From the NCBI RefSeq assembly GCF_053078305.1, contig NZ_CP166879.1: a DNA stretch of 64,000 bases; one strand, 5' to 3'. The notes beneath the pieces are model-generated. The model made no database searches and had not been told where the DNA came from. It saw only the letters and a program-made list of their open reading frames with translations. Positions 17,463-60,141 of the stretch are shown piece after piece; positions within the stretch are counted from its first letter, which is position 1; every line of letters starts with the position of its first letter. Position numbers and translations under genes: made by a program.

Positions 17463-17665
<203 letters not shown>

Positions 17666-37737: not shown

Positions 37738-40782
<3,045 letters not shown>

Positions 40783-53378: not shown

Positions 53379-54241
53379 TGCGTACGGACAATCAGGTACA
53401 TAAAGCTTTATTCACTATCCCGGCGGCAGCGTACAGCGCCGTTCCGGCAAATATCAAACCTCTGCCAGAACAAAGGAGGATCACCGGACATAAACAGACT
53501 GATGCTTATCTCTGGATTCTGGAGGTTATTCACCTGAACGAGGCCGTACATCTGGACGCAGCCGAAGCAGCACTGGAGAAACTCAAAATAACGCCGGAAG
53601 AAGCGAGTGAACGGTATGGACGTTATTTGCAGGAGATTAATGTTGATCCTTTCCAGATTGCTTTCGCAACCATAGGCATGGATAACCCGGCGCAGGCGAT
53701 CAGGAATGCCCGTGAGAATATCAAAAAAGCCGCATCAGTCAGGGCCACATTTGGCAGCTATGAGGCAGCACTCGACGATGTGGAGGCTGAGCGGATAATT
53801 CGCACCTCCCCGAAATTTATCGACGATTACTACTGGGGCTGGACTGCGGCAGAGAAAAAAGCCGGAAGTATTGACGGTGTTCGCTCAAATGAAATTGATG
53901 ATCAGCGTCGTGCATATGTTGATGGCTATCGTGATGTACTGCCAGAGCCTCATACATTGTCAGACGTTGTTCGTGAGTTTATTTACTGGGACTGGCTTTA
54001 TGAGATGCGCCAGACAGCGGGGAGAGAAACAGGGGACAAATACGGTTTCACAGGTGAACATCATGAGTCAGTATATGATCGGCAGTTCTGGCTCGAAAAT
54101 TTGCTGGGAAAAATAAAGCCTGTGACGCGTGATGAAGCGGTTGAAGTGTGTCGCTGGTTTCTGGCAAGCGGAAAAGATGAGTACATGGAAGACAATGGTT
54201 CAGCGGTCATTCTCAATCTGGTTGGGGAGTGTGAGCAATGA
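53375..54241 (+). CDS. Hypothetical protein (replication/nin-region position)
   Basis: 288-aa ORF overlapping the primase stop by 4 nt. Confidence 0.6.
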   Translation: MMRTDNQVHKALFTIPAAAYSAVPANIKPLPEQRRITGHKQTDAYLWILEVIHLNEAVHLDAAEAALEKLKITPEEASERYGRYLQEINVDPFQIAFATIGMDNPAQAIRNARENIKKAASVRATFGSYEAALDDVEAERIIRTSPKFIDDYYWGWTAAEKKAGSIDGVRSNEIDDQRRAYVDGYRDVLPEPHTLSDVVREFIYWDWLYEMRQTAGRETGDKYGFTGEHHESVYDRQFWLENLLGKIKPVTRDEAVEVCRWFLASGKDEYMEDNGSAVILNLVGECEQ

Positions 54242-54319
54242 AGCCGGAGATATCCAGTAGACATTTTCCCCCTGAGCATTCAAATCAGAAAAAGTATGGT
54301 TACAGCGGAGTACAGAATA

Positions 54320-54745
54320 ATGCGTGATATCCAACAGGTTCTGTCCCGATGGGGTGCATGGGTGGTAAATAATCATGAGAGTGTGGCATGGTCCGGCGTC
54401 GCTGCCGGATTTAAGGGAGTGATCCCATCAAAGGTTAAATCACGGCCTCAGTGTACCGATGATGATGCGCTGATTATCAGCAATTGCATGGCGCAACTGA
54501 ACGTCAACAACAGCGATTTGCATGATTTTCTGTATGATTATTATGTGTTCGGGATGACGCTTATGGGACTGGGCCGTAAGCATGAGCGCTCTGATTGCTG
54601 GGCCGGGCGGGTACTGCAAAAAGCTGAAGGTGTTATTGAGGGGATGTTGATTATGCAGGGAATAAAACTGGAAATGGACAGATACGTTGAGCGTGAACGA
54701 TCAGGGGCACAGGTCAGTCAGTTTTCCGGACATACGGGAAATTGA
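54320..54745 (+). CDS. Q: Late-gene antiterminator Q (933W-type family)
   Basis: ORF 54296..54745. I prefer Met at 54320 ([20 protein letters not shown]...[12 protein letters not shown]...[12 protein letters not shown]), which closely matches my recollection of Stx-phage Q. GGAG lies 9 nt upstream. Confidence 0.8.
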
Positions 54746-54769
54746 AAGCGCGGGGTTTTACTGTAGAAT
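54742..54769 (+). promoter_or_regulatory. Strong sigma70-type promoter overlapping the Q stop codon (hok-mRNA promoter and/or PR' equivalent)
   Basis: TTGAAA (54742-54747), a 16-nt spacer, then TAGAAT (54764-54769). The predicted start near 54775-54777 coincides with the 5' end of the hok-type mRNA fold. Confidence 0.6.
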
Positions 54770-54774
54770 GACTG

Positions 54775-55164
54775 CGGGTGCTTGAGGGGGTCTGCCTCGG
54801 GCATGCTGCCGTAAGGCAGACGGAGAAAAGCCCCAGTTAACATTACGTGTCCTGCAAGACGCTTAACATTAATCTGAGGCCCAATCTATGTCACACAACC
54901 GTAGGTTAGCCTCTTACGTGCCGGAAGGCAAGGAGAAGCAGTCTATGAAGCAGCAAAAGGCGATGTTAATTCGCCCTGATCGTCATCTGTTTAACCGTCA
55001 TAGTGACGGCACTGGTAACGAGGAAAGACCTCTGCGAGGTACGGATCCGAACCGGCCAGACGGAGGTCGCTGTCTTCGTAGACTACGAATCTGAGAAGTA
55101 AGAGACCAGGCGGGGGAGTAATCTCCCGCCACCTCTGATGTGTCAGGCATCCTCAACGCACCCG
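54775..55164 (+). other. hok/mok/sok-type type I toxin-antitoxin transcription unit (full-length mRNA architecture)
   Basis: The 5' CGGGTGCTTGAGG (54775-54787) is complementary to the 3' CCTCAACGCACCCG (55151-55164), as in tac/fbi fold-back pairing. The mok-like leader starts at ATG 54888. Leader sequences resemble plasmid R1 hok (GCTTGAGG..TCTGCCTC..., CTATGTC...AGCCTCTTAC...GCAAGGAGAAG). A 3' hairpin lies at about 55109-55130. Confidence 0.7.
54945..55101 (+). pseudogene. hok: hok/gef-family toxin gene disrupted by a +1 frameshift (extra T at 54970/54971)
   Basis: As written, the ATG at 54945 gives MKQQKAMLIRPDRHLFNRHSDG... Deleting one T restores MKQQKAMLIALIVICLTVIVTALVTRKDLCEVRIRTGQTEVAVFVDYESEK, a canonical Hok/Gef sequence, with stop at 55099-55101. 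Confidence 0.7.
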
Positions 55165-55275
55165 TACTTTATTTGTCATATGCTCCGCAAAATGCAGGTT
55201 GTCGTTGCAACCCGTGCGGTAATTTTTTGTGTGCGAGTGCTCAAAAAACGTTGATTTTCATAAAAGGATAATTTT

Positions 55276-58176
55276 ATGCTGCCAGACCAGCGACCAGCGA
55301 CCAGCGACCAGCGACCAGCGACCAGCGACCAGCGACCAGCGACCAGCGACCAGCGACCAGCGACCAGCGACCAGCGACCAGCGACCAGCGACCAGCGACC
55401 AGCGACCAGCGACCAGCGACCAGCGACCAGCGACCAGCGACCAGCGACCAGCGACCAGCGACCAGCGACCAGCGACCAGCGACCAGCGACCAGCGACCAG
55501 CGACCAGCGACCAGCGACCAGCGACCAGCGACCAGCGACCAGCGACCAGCGACCAGCGACCAGCGACCAGCGACCAGCGACCAGCGACCAGCGACCAGCG
55601 ACCAGCGACCAGCGACCAGCGACCAGCGACCAGCGACCAGCGACCAGCGACCAGCGACCAGCGACCAGCGACCAGCGACCAGCGACCAGCGACCAGCGAC
55701 CAGCGACCAGCGACCAGCGACCAGCGACCAGCGACCAGCGACCAGCGACCAGCGACCAGCGACCAGCGACCAGCGACCAGCGACCAGCGACCAGCGACCA
55801 GCGACCAGCGACCAGCGACCAGCGACCAGCGACCAGCGACCAGCGACCAGCGACCAGCGACCAGCGACCAGCGACCAGCGACCAGCGACCAGCGACCAGC
55901 GACCAGCGACCAGCGACCAGCGACCAGCGACCAGCGACCAGCGACCAGCGACCAGCGACCAGCGACCAGCGACCAGCGACCAGCGACCAGCGACCAGCGA
56001 CCAGCGACCAGCGACCAGCGACCAGCGACCAGCGACCAGCGACCAGCGACCAGCGACCAGCGACCAGCGACCAGCGACCAGCGACCAGCGACCAGCGACC
56101 AGCGACCAGCGACCAGCGACCAGCGACCGTAAATCAAGAAAGTCTGTAAAATCTGTTGAACCAGACATTGCCGACCGGGCTAACAGCTGGCTCAAATCTT
56201 ATGGACTTGATTACAAACTGGAGCAGGCACCACTTAACAACGAGATCGATAACGCACTGGATGCTTATTTTTCGAAAAATGGCGGCGCAGGCGGTAATCG
56301 TCCCGACGTAAAACTCCTTGTTCAGGACAAATACGGCAAGCAGTATCCCGTTCTCATCGAGTATAAAGGCTACAAGGACAGGCTTATCAGACTTGGCAGC
56401 AACGGTATTATTGAGAACAAAGATGCCAGAAAAGAATGGAATTTTAAAAATATTAATGGATACGCGGTGAATGGCGCAGTCCATTATGCCAACGCACTTC
56501 TTCAGTTCACCAATTACCCTGATATTATTGCTATTGGTATGACCGGCTGGCGCGATGATGATACAGGCGAACTGCATCATGAAATCGGCGTGTGGTACGT
56601 ATCAAAGAATAATTTAGGAGCCGGGCAGAAGGTTGGTGAATTCACCGACTTATCATTCCTTGCTGACAAAAATGTTGATGGATTTCTCAACAAGATAAAG
56701 CTGCTTAATCTTCCTCCCGAAGAACTGGAAAAAATCAAGGCCAGCAAAGAGGAAGAGATAGACACGCGACTTTCCCGTCTGAATAACGATATTTACCAGA
56801 ATGAAAAGGGGCTTGGTGAAAGCGATCGTGTTTACCTTGTTGTGGCTACCGTTATTGCAACGTTGGGGATTCCGGGAAAGTTAGCACCGCTGGATAAAAA
56901 AGAACTGACCTCTTCAACGGAGGAGGACTTGCGTGATGGTGATATTATTTTCAGGAAAATAAGGAATTTTTTAAGGCTGAAAGCTGTTCCTGAAACAAAA
57001 AGAGAAATGATTTTGCGCTCGTTGCAAAATACGCTGTGGACTGAAAACATTAACAAACCAGTCAACGGTGAAAGCCAGTTAAAGCGCGTGTTTGTTAAAG
57101 TTGTTGATGATCTTGGGGAGTATTACAAAATCGGACTGACCACCGATTTTACGGGCAAACTGTTTAATGAGATGTATCGCTGGCTTGGATTTACGCAGGA
57201 CAAACTCAATGACGTCGTTCTGACACCACCTTATGTTGCCACATTGCTGGCACGACTCGCCAGAGTAAACAAAGATTCCTATGTGTGGGATTTTGCTACA
57301 GGTTCTGCGGGATTGCTTGTGGCTGCAATGAATGAAATGCTCATTGACGCCAGAGAAAATATTCACTCACCGAATGAACTACAACTTAAGGAAGCGCAAA
57401 TCAAGGCTGAACAGCTTCTTGGCCTTGAGGTGTTATCCAGTATTTATATGCTGGCCATCCTGAATATGATTTTGATGGGGGATGGTAGCTCGAATATCCT
57501 CAATAAAGACTCGCTAGCCGATTTTGACGGCAAGTATGGATTTGGGAAAACAGGAGAAAAATTCCCTGCGGACGCATTTATTCTCAATCCTCCGTATTCA
57601 GCTAAAGGTAACGGCATGATTTTCGTGCAGAAGGCGCTGTCGATGATGGATAAAGGCTATGCTGCAGTGATTATCCAGAGTTCAGCCGGCACAGGAAAGG
57701 CTACGGAGTACAACAAAAAAATACTCAAGGAAAATACCTTGCTGGCAAGCATCAAAATGCCTGCGGATCTGTTTATTGGTAAATCAAGCGTTCAGACGTA
57801 CATTTACGTTTTTCAGGTAAAAATTCCGCATAACGCGAAACAGGCTGTTAAGTTTATCGACTTTTCCAATGACGGCTATGCTCGCTCTAATCGCAAAAAG
57901 GCAAGAAACAATCTTGTTGATGCCGATCGTGCAAAAGAGCGTTATCAGGAGGTTGTGGATCTGGTTCACTTCGGGAAAGGTTGCCTTAATATCTTTACGG
58001 AGGATGAATATTTTGAGGGAACAATCGATCCTGATAGTGGTGAGGACTGGAATCAGACTAGGCCAGTAGATACCAGACCGACACTGGAGGATTTTAAAAA
58101 GACGGTTGGCGACTATCTTGCGTGGGAGGTGTCAAAACTTCTTCAGGGGCGTGATGCGTCAGAAAAAAAGCAGTAA
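55276..58176 (+). CDS. Restriction-modification polypeptide: 40 x PATSDQR repeat leader + PD-ExK (HSDR_N-like) nuclease + gamma-class N6-adenine methyltransferase (BcgI-A-like, Type IIB/IIG layout)
   Basis: ATG 55276 follows AAAAGGA. After the repeat come NRPDVKLLV...YPVLIEYKG (PD...ExK), then YVWDFATGSAGLL (SAM motif I) and FILNPPYS (motif IV). No SF2 translocase domain is present. It is followed by an HsdS-like gene. Confidence 0.75.
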   Translation: MLPDQRPATSDQRPATSDQRPATSDQRPATSDQRPATSDQRPATSDQRPATSDQRPATSDQRPATSDQRPATSDQRPATSDQRPATSDQRPATSDQRPATSDQRPATSDQRPATSDQRPATSDQRPATSDQRPATSDQRPATSDQRPATSDQRPATSDQRPATSDQRPATSDQRPATSDQRPATSDQRPATSDQRPATSDQRPATSDQRPATSDQRPATSDQRPATSDQRPATSDQRPATSDQRPATSDQRPATSDQRPATSDQRPATSDQRPATSDQRPATSDRKSRKSVKSVEPDIADRANSWLKSYGLDYKLEQAPLNNEIDNALDAYFSKNGGAGGNRPDVKLLVQDKYGKQYPVLIEYKGYKDRLIRLGSNGIIENKDARKEWNFKNINGYAVNGAVHYANALLQFTNYPDIIAIGMTGWRDDDTGELHHEIGVWYVSKNNLGAGQKVGEFTDLSFLADKNVDGFLNKIKLLNLPPEELEKIKASKEEEIDTRLSRLNNDIYQNEKGLGESDRVYLVVATVIATLGIPGKLAPLDKKELTSSTEEDLRDGDIIFRKIRNFLRLKAVPETKREMILRSLQNTLWTENINKPVNGESQLKRVFVKVVDDLGEYYKIGLTTDFTGKLFNEMYRWLGFTQDKLNDVVLTPPYVATLLARLARVNKDSYVWDFATGSAGLLVAAMNEMLIDARENIHSPNELQLKEAQIKAEQLLGLEVLSSIYMLAILNMILMGDGSSNILNKDSLADFDGKYGFGKTGEKFPADAFILNPPYSAKGNGMIFVQKALSMMDKGYAAVIIQSSAGTGKATEYNKKILKENTLLASIKMPADLFIGKSSVQTYIYVFQVKIPHNAKQAVKFIDFSNDGYARSNRKKARNNLVDADRAKERYQEVVDLVHFGKGCLNIFTEDEYFEGTIDPDSGEDWNQTRPVDTRPTLEDFKKTVGDYLAWEVSKLLQGRDASEKKQ
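55285..56128 (+). repeat. Perfect heptanucleotide tandem repeat (GACCAGC) x 120 plus a partial GACC
   Basis: I checked the phase at the start of every 60-nt line and it is consistent. The six-frame translations are perfectly periodic (PATSDQR / WSLVAGR). I saw no variant unit. Confidence 0.97.
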
Positions 58177-58211
58177 ACTCCCGTCTTGCAGAGCTTGAGC
58201 GGGAGTTTATT
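58164..58211 (+). promoter_or_regulatory. Candidate -1 programmed ribosomal frameshift (or A7 slippage) cassette at the A/S junction
   Basis: A_AAA_AAG lies at 58164-58170 in the correct zero frame (GAA AAA AAG). Then comes a stem, with core ACTCCCG (58177-58183) / CGGGAGT (58200-58206), extendable to about 12 bp over 58172-58211. The -1 frame is the S-subunit frame. Confidence 0.45.
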
Positions 58212-58250
58212 AAATCTGGTGGTAAATGGGAAGAATACACAATCGAAAGA

Positions 58251-59360
58251 TTGTTCAGTATTCAGACACCTAAAAAGAAATTTAATGCCAATAAATTAAC
58301 ATTTAATGGCAACTATCCTTATGTTGCCAGAGGAAGTAACAATAACGGCATAAAAGGATATATAGATGAAGATGAATTATATCTCAACCCGGGGAATACA
58401 ATTAGCTTTGGTCAGGATACTGCGACTATGTTCTATCAGGAAAACGCATATTTCACAGGTGATAAAATAAAGATTTTTTCTCTCAGGCATGGAGAGTTAA
58501 ATTCGCGAATTGCTTTTTTTCTTATATCAGCAATGAAAAAATCTTTTTCAACGTTTAGTTGGGGGAGTAGCTCTTTTAATGAGAATGTTCTCAATAAGGT
58601 AAAGATAAATATACCTACGTTTAATAATGTTCCTGCATATAATTATATGGTAAAGTATATAGAAGAGCTGGAAGCGGCCCATATAGAAGAGCTGGAAGCG
58701 GCCCATATAGAAGAGCTGGAAGCATACCTGATAGCTGCTGGGCTGAGTGATTACCAACTAACGGAAAAAGATTATCTTATCCTGGAACATTTTAAAAATA
58801 TTGAATTTTCAGGCTTTCCTGTTACTGAGTTATTCTCAGTGTGCAATACAGGAAACATATTGTCTAGAGACATCATAGAAAATAGTGGGGATGTTCCTTA
58901 TCTTTGTGCTAGCCGTGAGAATAACTCTGTTAGTTCTTATATCGCCTATGATAACTCACTCTTGGAAAAAGGGAACTGTATTTTTATTGGTGGTAAGACA
59001 TTCGTTGTAACTTATCAGGAGCGAGACTTTTTTTCAAACGACAGTCATAATTTGCGACTCTATGTTAACAATGAGGATGGAAGGACAAAGTTTGCTTATT
59101 TGGGCATTATTTCATGTATTTATAGATCTATTTCACATAAATATTCATGGGGGGATAGTGTTAGTAATAGAAAAATTAAGAACGATGTTGTTTGGTTGCC
59201 AGTAAAAAATAAGTCACCTGACTTTTGTTATATAAATGACCTTATTTCAGTTGTTCATAAGCTTGTCATTAAAGATGTTGTCCAGTACGCAGAACGCAAA
59301 ATGAACGCATACAGGCAAGCTATAACAAGTCGCGGTTATGATGATTCTGGTGTCAGTTAA
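58251..59360 (+). CDS. Specificity (S) subunit with two target-recognition domains (HsdS / BcgI-B-like)
   Basis: 369 aa from TTG 58251. The same frame is open back to 58155 with no ATG/GTG/TTG, and it encodes S-like sequence (RLAELEREFIKSGGKWEEYTIERLF). Two TRD-like halves are separated by a helical IEELEAAH repeat. Low GC. Confidence 0.7.
   Translation: MFSIQTPKKKFNANKLTFNGNYPYVARGSNNNGIKGYIDEDELYLNPGNTISFGQDTATMFYQENAYFTGDKIKIFSLRHGELNSRIAFFLISAMKKSFSTFSWGSSSFNENVLNKVKINIPTFNNVPAYNYMVKYIEELEAAHIEELEAAHIEELEAYLIAAGLSDYQLTEKDYLILEHFKNIEFSGFPVTELFSVCNTGNILSRDIIENSGDVPYLCASRENNSVSSYIAYDNSLLEKGNCIFIGGKTFVVTYQERDFFSNDSHNLRLYVNNEDGRTKFAYLGIISCIYRSISHKYSWGDSVSNRKIKNDVVWLPVKNKSPDFCYINDLISVVHKLVIKDVVQYAERKMNAYRQAITSRGYDDSGVS
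58659..58723 (+). repeat. 24-bp tandem repeat (2 full units plus 17 nt) encoding IEELEAAH in the central helix of the S subunit
   Basis: atagaagagctggaagcggcccat at 58659-58682 and 58683-58706, then atagaagagctggaagc at 58707-58723. Confidence 0.9.
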
Positions 59361-59425
59361 AAAACATTTTACAATCGTAAAAATCCTCATATCATGATAA
59401 GAATGGTTACATTGCCACGCTGCTT

Positions 59426-59450
59426 AACCCGCCGATGCGCGGGTTTTTTG
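59426..59450 (+). terminator. Intrinsic terminator downstream of the S gene
   Basis: ACCCGC / GCGGGT stem followed by T6. Confidence 0.7.
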
Positions 59451-59630
59451 TATCCGGAATCCTGTTAGTTATACGGAAAGTACACAGAAAGGAAGGTGCG
59501 ACCGCAATTAATAACAAAATCTTAAAAATCGCATATGGCACTATTAGTTTTCTAAATATTGTATATTTTGAGTATTGTAGGATATCCCCTGTAACGAAGT
59601 TTGCGTAACAGCATTTTGCTCTACGAGTTT

Positions 59631-59660
59631 GCCAGCCTCCCCCAGTGGCTGGCTTTTTTT
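59631..59660 (+). terminator. Strong intrinsic terminator
   Basis: GCCAGCC / GGCTGGC stem with a 9-nt loop, followed by T7. It is followed by GTATCC, like the previous terminator. Confidence 0.75.
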
Positions 59661-59899
59661 GTATCCGTTCAACAGGAATGTTACATACCTCACAATTAAG
59701 TCAGTTGAAGGTTGTCTGCCCGGATGAGAATTTGTTAGAAAATTTCTGCATGGTGAATCCCCCTGAGCGGCGGGGCATATCAGCGTCACAGGTGTTTCTG
59801 TTTTACCTCTATCCTTTCTGTGCGGGTTCAGGTGCTGATACTGAACTCACCGGGAGGCACCCGGCACCATGCAGTATACAGAGATTAGGCATATACCAG

Positions 59900-59924
59900 G
59901 GCCCCTCATAGCAGGGGCCTTTTT
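59900..59924 (+). terminator. Intrinsic terminator upstream of nanS-p
   Basis: GGCCCCT / AGGGGCC stem with a 6-nt loop, followed by T5. Confidence 0.7.
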
Positions 59925-60141
59925 ACATGCAAAAAAAAGCCGCCCCGGGAAGAGCGGTTGGCAAGAAGAAAAGCAATATGAACAATTAATTAACGCTGCG
60001 AATAATACCTTACAGTAATCACCCTGCGCAACTGTGAGGAGTGTATTTCTTTTTTGCGGGTGGTTGTCTTTTTCCCTTGTGTTTCGGGACTTCCGTTCAC
60101 TCCTTATCTTATTCAGTACATTATCCCGGCCGGGAGGATTC

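Follow-up and report, generated by a model that had tools for sequence, protein, structure and literature searches.

The window analysed here, a stretch of 64,000 nucleotides from contig NZ_CP166879.1 (NCBI RefSeq assembly GCF_053078305.1), carries a prophage in which a pair of restriction-modification (RM) genes lies behind a very long heptanucleotide tract. We consider it likely that this is an stx-negative 933W-like prophage, and that the interval between its late antiterminator gene Q and its late promoter pR' holds an accessory module composed of a hok/sok locus and a BcgI-like RM system under a heptanucleotide frame switch. The module has the following features (SD, Shine-Dalgarno sequence; ORF, open reading frame; MTase, methyltransferase; S, specificity; TRD, target recognition domain; TRF, Tandem Repeats Finder).

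54742-54769, plus strand: promoter-like site TTGAAA-16-TAGAAT (consensus scan, 10/12 matches)
54776-54947, plus strand: hok mRNA leader and sok antisense region (Rfam RF01794 sok, 97.6 bits against a gathering score of 59)
54945-55101, plus strand: hok toxin ORF, frameshifted (extra T at 54970-54971)
55262-55284, plus strand: SD (AAGGA) and ATG (55276), then CTGCCA into the repeat (read from the sequence)
55276-58176, plus strand: RM (alpha) subunit ORF, 966 aa, in frame through the tract (ORF list and frame analysis)
55285-56128, plus strand: perfect heptanucleotide repeat (GACCAGC) x 120.6, encoding (TSDQRPA)n (TRF, 100% matches, score 1688)
56128-58176, plus strand: RM enzyme body, 682 aa (PADLOC and Pfam)
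56296-56367, plus strand: PD-(D/E)xK nuclease motif (NRPD ... EYK), conserved in homologues and located on the modelled N-terminal domain
57289-57597, plus strand: MTase motifs I (DFATGSAG) through IV (NPPY) in gamma-class order (Pfam N6_Mtase; invariant columns)
58251-59360, plus strand: specificity (S or beta) subunit with two TRDs (PF01420 in two stretches, E 1.4e-28; PADLOC Specificity_II)
58657-58723, plus strand: 24-nt repeat x 2.8 (IEELEAAH) in the central conserved region of S (TRF)

The RM pair and its class

The enzyme body encoded downstream of the tract matched the PADLOC profile REase_MTase_IIG along its whole length (residues 6-673, E 4.8e-234) and Pfam N6_Mtase with an E value of 4.9e-21, and gave a weak match to VRR_NUC below the cut-off. 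The order of the motifs is NRPD..LIEYKG, DFA[TS]GSAG, NPPY, and across 72 full-length homologues from many phyla they are at least 95% invariant. In the AlphaFold model the N-terminal ~200 residues form an alpha/beta domain (pLDDT ~75-92), with the PD and ExK residues on adjacent strands. Foldseek matches of the model included Type I HsdM subunits, the BsaXI RM protein and BpuSI, all with low TM scores and weakly supportive; BsaXI RM ranked sixth (E 3.5e-6, TM ~0.2, from a low-confidence model). One phage record names the gene 'BcgI alpha chain-like'. The downstream protein matched PADLOC Specificity_II over residues 10-336.

Homologues were surveyed in a collection of species-representative genomes, with locus counts taken from the best 80 of 359 stretches encoding an RM relative. 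These best 80 relatives share 69-74% identity with the RM protein and are distributed over Firmicutes, Bacteroidota, Proteobacteria, Campylobacterota, Cyanobacteria and other groups. An S-like gene lies 70-100 nt 3' of the RM gene in 77 of the 80 loci, at 22-54% identity, a wide range that is expected for swappable TRDs. No third gene family is common to more than 12 of the 80 loci, so that no conserved translocase or HsdR accompanies the pair; hsdR is likewise missing from the module itself. This arrangement supports the assignment of the pair, by architecture, to the BcgI-like (Type IIB, RM plus S) layout. The initial annotation, which had preferred the BcgI A/B arrangement over Type I on the basis of the motifs NRPD..EYK, DFATGSAG and NPPY and the lack of a superfamily 2 translocase, was borne out in each of these respects: the quoted motifs are present, Pfam recognises N6_Mtase in the RM body and Methylase_S in its partner, a nuclease-MTase fusion stands beside a two-TRD S gene, and PD..ExK is conserved among the homologues.

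In BcgI-like enzymes one protein both cuts and methylates (PMC3874165), and most RM plus S Type IIB enzymes have an HsdM-like MTase part (PMC11997821, PMC3874165). With BcgI, BaeI, CspCI, BsaXI and NgoAVIII (RM plus S, 2RM:1S) the present pair shares an N-terminal PD-ExK domain joined to an HsdM-like, gamma-class N6-adenine MTase, a separate two-TRD S gene immediately downstream and the lack of a translocase. It differs from them in its 5' repeat switch, a repeat that is absent from the 80 homologous loci in other species, and it has no detectable sequence similarity to BsaXI, the one solved member of the group. By analogy, the large subunit would cut DNA with its N-terminal PD-ExK domain and methylate adenine with its gamma-class MTase, and the S subunit, having two TRDs, would recognise a bipartite site, which the enzyme would presumably cut on both sides.

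A Type I system was rejected, as the nuclease motif is fused to the MTase, a separate HsdR is lacking and the NCBIfam hsdM equivalog gave the RM protein only 36 bits against a cut-off of 242.75. The helicase gene at 50750-52408 was considered as a hidden HsdR and dismissed: it is paired with a primase gene, is absent from several relatives' modules and is not conserved beside RM genes elsewhere. Because it adjoins the toprim primase gene and is absent from those modules, it is therefore attributed to the replication module.

The heptanucleotide tract and its variation between strains

A spacer of 184 nt separates the hok/sok locus from the start of the RM gene. The tract begins nine bases past the ATG at 55276 and ends about eight codons before the native N-terminus, which in homologues begins M-x-x-x-[KR]-S-V/I-E-P, and it occupies the distance between the new ATG and that point. 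The native RM start has evidently been replaced by a new SD and ATG followed by the repeat. The GACCAGC unit contains no stop codon in any frame; therefore, the length of the tract alone decides whether the ATG at 55276 reads into the enzyme. The copy in the window is in frame (ON), and its 966-aa ORF consists of MLP, then ~40 copies of the heptad DQRPATS, and then the enzyme, so that the protein would bear a ~280-aa (TSDQRPA)n N-terminal extension.

The same SD/ATG leader precedes the tract in every examined E. coli locus with the module, and the leader, and with it the module, was found in 29 of 5426 complete E. coli genomes. In IMG/VR, 18 of the 24 contigs holding the repeat carry the same leader or the RM gene; many contigs break at the tract, and a Salmonella contig starts at its end. 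A repeat scan of IMG/VR found no second type of RM gene using the heptanucleotide. The tract comprises 16-99 copies in a further 20 complete records of E. coli or phages, and all three frames occur, the copy numbers seen altogether being 16, 56, 58, 64, 76, 80, 82, 83, 88, 89, 99 and 120.

The length of the tract also differs between near-identical isolates, compared by matching 800 bp upstream and 3000 bp downstream of the tract (3.8 kb of flanks). O111:H8 isolates with identical flanks have 83, 58 and 56 copies, a UCPROB pair with identical flanks 83 and 76, and strains G8 and G6/7, again with identical flanks, 99 (in frame) and 83; strain G1/2 shows one flank mismatch and an imperfect tract of ~93 copies. 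The last three strains (L121-L123; related loci are given here as L numbers) are components of the probiotic E. coli product Symbioflor. This hypervariability between strains probably reflects translational phase variation of the RM gene. In such a mechanism translation would reach the enzyme only when the length of the tract keeps the ATG in frame, that is with one length in three, and slipped-strand mispairing in a tract this long would lead to ON/OFF switching at high frequency. To our knowledge, an 840-bp tract is among the longest known for repeat-driven phase variation.

Assembly artefact is scarcely credible as the origin of the 840-bp tract. Related assemblies do contain evident tract errors, such as single-base deletions and the poly-C run in L008, and short-read contigs break at the tract; against this, 20 complete genomes or phage records, independent of one another, have the same leader and the same downstream junction, 18 IMG/VR contigs contain the tract too, and the tract lengths differ by exact multiples of 7. 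The run in L008 (strain 2015C-3121, positions 1598-1700) is a long poly-C stretch inside the tract and almost certainly a sequencing artefact.

The tract has further properties of its own. Its complement on the minus strand is a tandem array of GCTGGTCG, which matches the Chi octamer GCTGGTGG at seven of eight positions about 120 times over. The Prokaryotic Genome Annotation Pipeline (PGAP) places artefactual minus-strand ORFs over the tract in L004, L005, L008, L009 and L011, named 'YXWGXW repeat-containing protein' or 'hypothetical', and starts the RM gene at internal codons, with the result that the database proteins are truncated and named HsdM. Translation from an internal start after the tract was considered and rejected, the PGAP start of one allele being a TTG without SD and that of another lying past the nuclease motif.

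Precedents for repeat switching

The closest precedent for the repeat itself is the phase-variable Type III mod gene (M.Eco131I) of STEC (E. coli that produces Shiga toxin), in which the unit CAGCGAC[n] is a rotation of GACCAGC (Atack et al. 2018, PMC5909438). Variation of tract length within strain populations has been shown for that gene, and short-read assemblies collapse its tract (PMC5909438). The two genes have in common a heptanucleotide identical by rotation, a 5' coding position after SD and ATG, the STEC host group and a strain-variable length. They differ in enzyme class, M.Eco131I being a Type III enzyme encoded by another gene, in SD sequence (GAGGGAA there, AAGGA here) and in copy number, the annotated M.Eco131I gene having 26 copies (PMC5909438) against 16-120 here. 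Identity of the RM gene in the window with the published STEC mod gene was ruled out, as neither of the published primers occurs in the window.

A second precedent is neuO of prophage CUS-3, coding for the capsule O-acetyltransferase of E. coli K1, in which a 5' heptanucleotide repeat acts as a frame switch; it has 3-53 copies of the unit AAGACTC and is OFF in two thirds of genomes (PMC13001214). Like the present RM gene, neuO is E. coli prophage cargo that is ON only in frame, is mostly OFF and has its repeat translated as an N-terminal heptad extension. It differs in the unit and copy range given above, and its product modifies the capsule and is not a DNA enzyme.

Literature searches brought up neither a phase-variable or repeat-switched Type IIB (BcgI-like) system nor an account of this module in Stx phages, and the main text of a survey of repeats in Type I systems makes no mention of E. 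coli (PMC7383803). BcgI-like systems and heptanucleotide frame switches are each known, and the present combination is a variation on the two.

Position of the module relative to pR' and the stx slot

The region that follows the S gene was compared with the annotated late region of phage VT1-Sakai (L001), where pR', the Q-utilization site and two pR' terminators come directly after Q and are followed by stx1AB. Window positions 59353-59659 are 92.5% identical to the VT1-Sakai stretch that carries these elements, which allowed the following features to be placed.

59368-59395, plus strand: late promoter pR' (VT1-Sakai homology; consensus scans)
59409-59416, plus strand: Q-utilization site (qut), an octamer identical to that of VT1-Sakai (consensus scans)
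59426-59449, plus strand: terminator tR', identical to that of VT1-Sakai (consensus scans)
59631-59660, plus strand: second pR' terminator, homologous to the VT1-Sakai terminator at L001 1773-1801
59660-59690, no strand: empty stx slot, a 17-30 bp gap to which the stx insertion points of relatives map

Nucleotide homology to VT1-Sakai within Q stops at 54697; further downstream it skips the stx1 operon and resumes at window position 59677, so that the stx1AB insert maps to 59660-59676. The stx1AB of VT1-Sakai, stx1c in L002, and the tRNA genes with stx2b in L003 all map between window position 59659 and positions 59677-59690. In strain 2013C-3033 (L002) the order is Q, hok, RM, S, pR' leader, stx1c, nanS-p, and strain 04-00955 (L003) has the same order with tRNA genes and stx2b in the stx slot. 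From these alignments, the hok-RM-S block (~54698-59352, 4.65 kb) is best described as having been inserted at Q's 3' end, ahead of pR'; the insertion gives Q another C-terminal tail. The site of the RM module and the stx slot are to be regarded as independent sites and not as alternatives, because 2013C-3033 and 04-00955 carry the RM module together with a filled stx slot.

The initial annotation had proposed that RM and hok occupy the stx cargo slot of the late operon in place of stx, and that Q antitermination from pR' would induce them strongly along with the lysis genes, as happens with Stx. The proposal took account of real features of the locus, as the genes do sit between Q and nanS-p, stx and tRNA genes are absent, and pR' in 933W-type phages normally comes immediately after Q. 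Nevertheless, we judge it very unlikely. The sole homologue of pR', qut and tR' lies past the S gene, and the promoter-like site after Q (54742-54769) has no homology to pR' or qut and abuts the hok leader. Neither occupation of the slot nor replacement of stx agrees with the position to which stx maps or with the relatives that hold the same RM module plus stx1c or stx2b. Since pR' is downstream of the RM genes, Q-driven co-induction of RM with the late genes is not implied. The downstream terminators noted at the outset belong to pR' and, together with it, lie beyond the RM genes. Compared with the Stx cargo that 933W, H-19B and VT1-Sakai carry in the late operon, the backbone, the pR'-qut-tR' leader and the downstream nanS-p and lysis genes are the same; the Stx cargo sits downstream of tR', whereas here RM and hok are upstream of pR' and the stx slot is empty. 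By general lambdoid biology, N-antiterminated pR transcripts running through Q could enter the module after induction.

The specificity subunit

Over window positions 58133-59360, the S gene is a mosaic of alleles found in relatives: as far as 58730 it follows L003 (99.7%; TRD1 and the central region), and from 58681 it follows L002 (98%; TRD2). This amounts to TRD reassortment, which would predict new specificity.

The IEELEAAH repeat of the central region is present in 3 copies in the window, L003, L004 and L013 and in 2 copies in other relatives. The S subunits of the Type I systems EcoR124I and EcoR124II also contain a short repeat in the central conserved region, the copy number of which varies between alleles. 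The likeness to the present S subunit lies in this variation of copy number; the unit has 8 aa here against 4 aa in EcoR124I and EcoR124II. By analogy, the number of IEELEAAH copies could change the length of the spacer in the recognition site.

In the closest relatives the S gene contains a second simple repeat, (GCGGACTC)n, at 4317-4371 of L004 (6.9 copies) and 4390-4524 of L005 (16.9 copies). It is located just past the central repeat and breaks S into half-size ORFs; the window is without it. In strain 2015C-3121 (L008), IS1 is inserted between the RM gene and S.

The hok/sok locus

The initial annotation had listed a hok/mok/sok addiction locus beside the RM genes. Its RNA region is present, as the Rfam match shows; an active addiction module is contradicted by a 1-nt frameshift in hok. 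The extra T after codon 9 leads to MKQQKAMLIRPDRH... in place of the 51-aa Hok, and after repair the ORF matches PF01848 (E 4e-23). The same frameshift occurs in L003, L004, L005 and L008, where PGAP labels the allele 'frameshifted', and the intact 51-aa Hok is encoded by eight other loci (among L002 and L006-L013). By this comparison, the hok toxin gene of this prophage is classed as a pseudogene. The promoter-like site at 54742-54769, just upstream of the Rfam hok/sok match, is probably the promoter of the hok mRNA.

The prophage backbone and the remainder of the window

The prophage starts at ~41.4 kb of the window, adjoining rcsB, and has a Stx-phage backbone with a Q gene of the 933W/H-19B family, nanS-p, P21-type lysis genes and 933W-like podovirus structural genes, the latter seen downstream in a 99%-identical relative in which the prophage continues. 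On the plus strand the order is Q, hok/sok, RM gene, S gene, nanS-p, DUF1378, P21-type holin and lysozyme. Domain matches in Pfam and the coordinates uphold the order of Q, cargo, nanS-p and lysis genes proposed initially, and the claimed absence of stx and tRNA genes holds across the 64-kb window. The genes flanking the module are the following.

50750-52408, plus strand: helicase (DEAD/ResIII), adjoining the toprim primase gene
52410-53378, plus strand: toprim primase
53375-54241, plus strand: hypothetical gene
54296-54745, plus strand: late antiterminator Q (PF06530, E 2.5e-45)
60142-62055, plus strand: nanS-p type esterase, the first large late gene (SASA, DUF1737, DUF6645)

The Q protein is 67.6% identical at the amino acid level to that of H-19B and 88% to that of phage PhiR12_3, a carrier of the same module; in the phage database this Q allele occurs only alongside the hok-RM module. 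No NCBIfam family scored above its cut-off for RM, S, Q or nanS-p. The S gene and nanS-p are separated by a non-coding stretch of 780 nt. Between the empty stx slot and nanS-p, a strong Rfam match to the small RNA family STnc100 (59719-59930, 167.6 bits) terminates in a terminator-like hairpin. Matches to naRNA4, an Rfam family derived from repetitive extragenic palindromic (REP) elements, at 17546-17616 and 40587-40777 fall in chromosomal sequence that precedes the prophage in the window.

Alternative explanations

Several observations weigh against the interpretation of the module as an active, phase-variable BcgI-like system. Perfect tracts are in frame in only two of fifteen cases (this window and strain G8) and out of frame in thirteen, counts which come from assemblies of 400-840-bp tracts that can err and may reflect the majority cell type only. 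The 280-aa low-complexity extension lies directly before the nuclease domain and might impair the enzyme. Apart from its N-terminal domain, the RM model is poor (mean pLDDT 61.6), and sequence searches of the PDB, by phmmer with the RM protein and with a 20-sequence profile, returned nothing, BsaXI in the PDB included. A consensus scan of 54769-56384 found no plus-strand promoter for the RM gene, and nothing convincing was seen there by eye. Finally, several relatives have an S gene that is split, truncated or disrupted by IS1, and the module may often be silent or decaying. Together with the frameshifted hok of the window, the predominance of out-of-frame tracts and the rarity of the module among complete E. 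coli genomes, the state of S in those relatives would suit a decaying relic without current function, in which the repeat is an unstable expansion. We hold such decay to be improbable, considering that the window has an in-frame RM ORF and an intact S gene, and that E. coli copies of the RM body share 97-99.7% identity, without internal stops. The tract is perfect despite its length, as expected of an active slippage tract and not of a degenerating one, and the reassortment of TRDs among S alleles suggests ongoing selection for new specificities.

A methyltransferase-only, HsdM/HsdS-like orphan that acts as a phase-variable epigenetic regulator (phasevarion) without restriction is unlikely as well, if marginally less so than decay. 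The PGAP name, 'HsdM family class I SAM-dependent methyltransferase', and the HsdM subunits as best fold matches are in its favour; ON/OFF switching of a nuclease would be risky for the host, and repeat-switched mod genes elsewhere work as regulators (PMC5909438). Nevertheless, a ~200-residue N-terminal domain lies ahead of the MTase, the invariance of its PD..ExK motif across phyla argues for a maintained nuclease, and the PADLOC IIG profile, which describes a nuclease-MTase fusion, spans nearly the entire enzyme body (residues 6-673). As for the risk, BcgI-like enzymes do both with one protein (PMC3874165), so that the OFF state removes cutting and methylation together and is hence safe. The stx-negative prophage with a frame-switched BcgI-like module upstream of pR' is thus retained as the likely explanation. 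A more far-reaching version, in which the Type IIB system of Stx-type prophages is hypermutable and has as many as three repeat switches, independent of each other, that continually diversify the restriction barriers and methylomes of clonal lysogens, is put forward tentatively, as a possibility that we rather doubt. The switches may be the RM heptanucleotide (ON/OFF), the 24-nt S repeat (resetting the spacing of half-sites) and, in some alleles, the S-truncating octanucleotide. In this version, the (TSDQRPA)n extension of up to ~280 aa may also tune the activity of the enzyme according to tract length, as has been reported for NeuO, and the heptanucleotide shared with the unrelated STEC mod gene would point to a switch repeat that is reused by E. 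coli prophages.

Significance

The interval from Q to pR' is a site for accessory genes apart from the stx slot, and a prophage can fill either or both; in the annotation of Stx phages, toxin-like late induction should not be transferred to genes of the upstream site. The module also poses an annotation problem: PGAP sets internal RM starts, calls spurious 'YXWGXW repeat' proteins from the other strand and applies the HsdM label. Repeat-driven phase variation is uncommon in E. coli, and here a whole nuclease plus methylase protein appears to be under such a switch. Populations of lysogens would gain a stochastic barrier to incoming DNA, with a putative role in defence, and a variable methylome. 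If the system is active, cells of some STEC, enteropathogenic E. coli (EPEC) and probiotic strains (Symbioflor G8, G6/7 and G1/2) would differ from one another in susceptibility to phages, uptake of DNA and methylome, which would have a bearing on phage therapy, methylome-based strain typing and prophage transfer.

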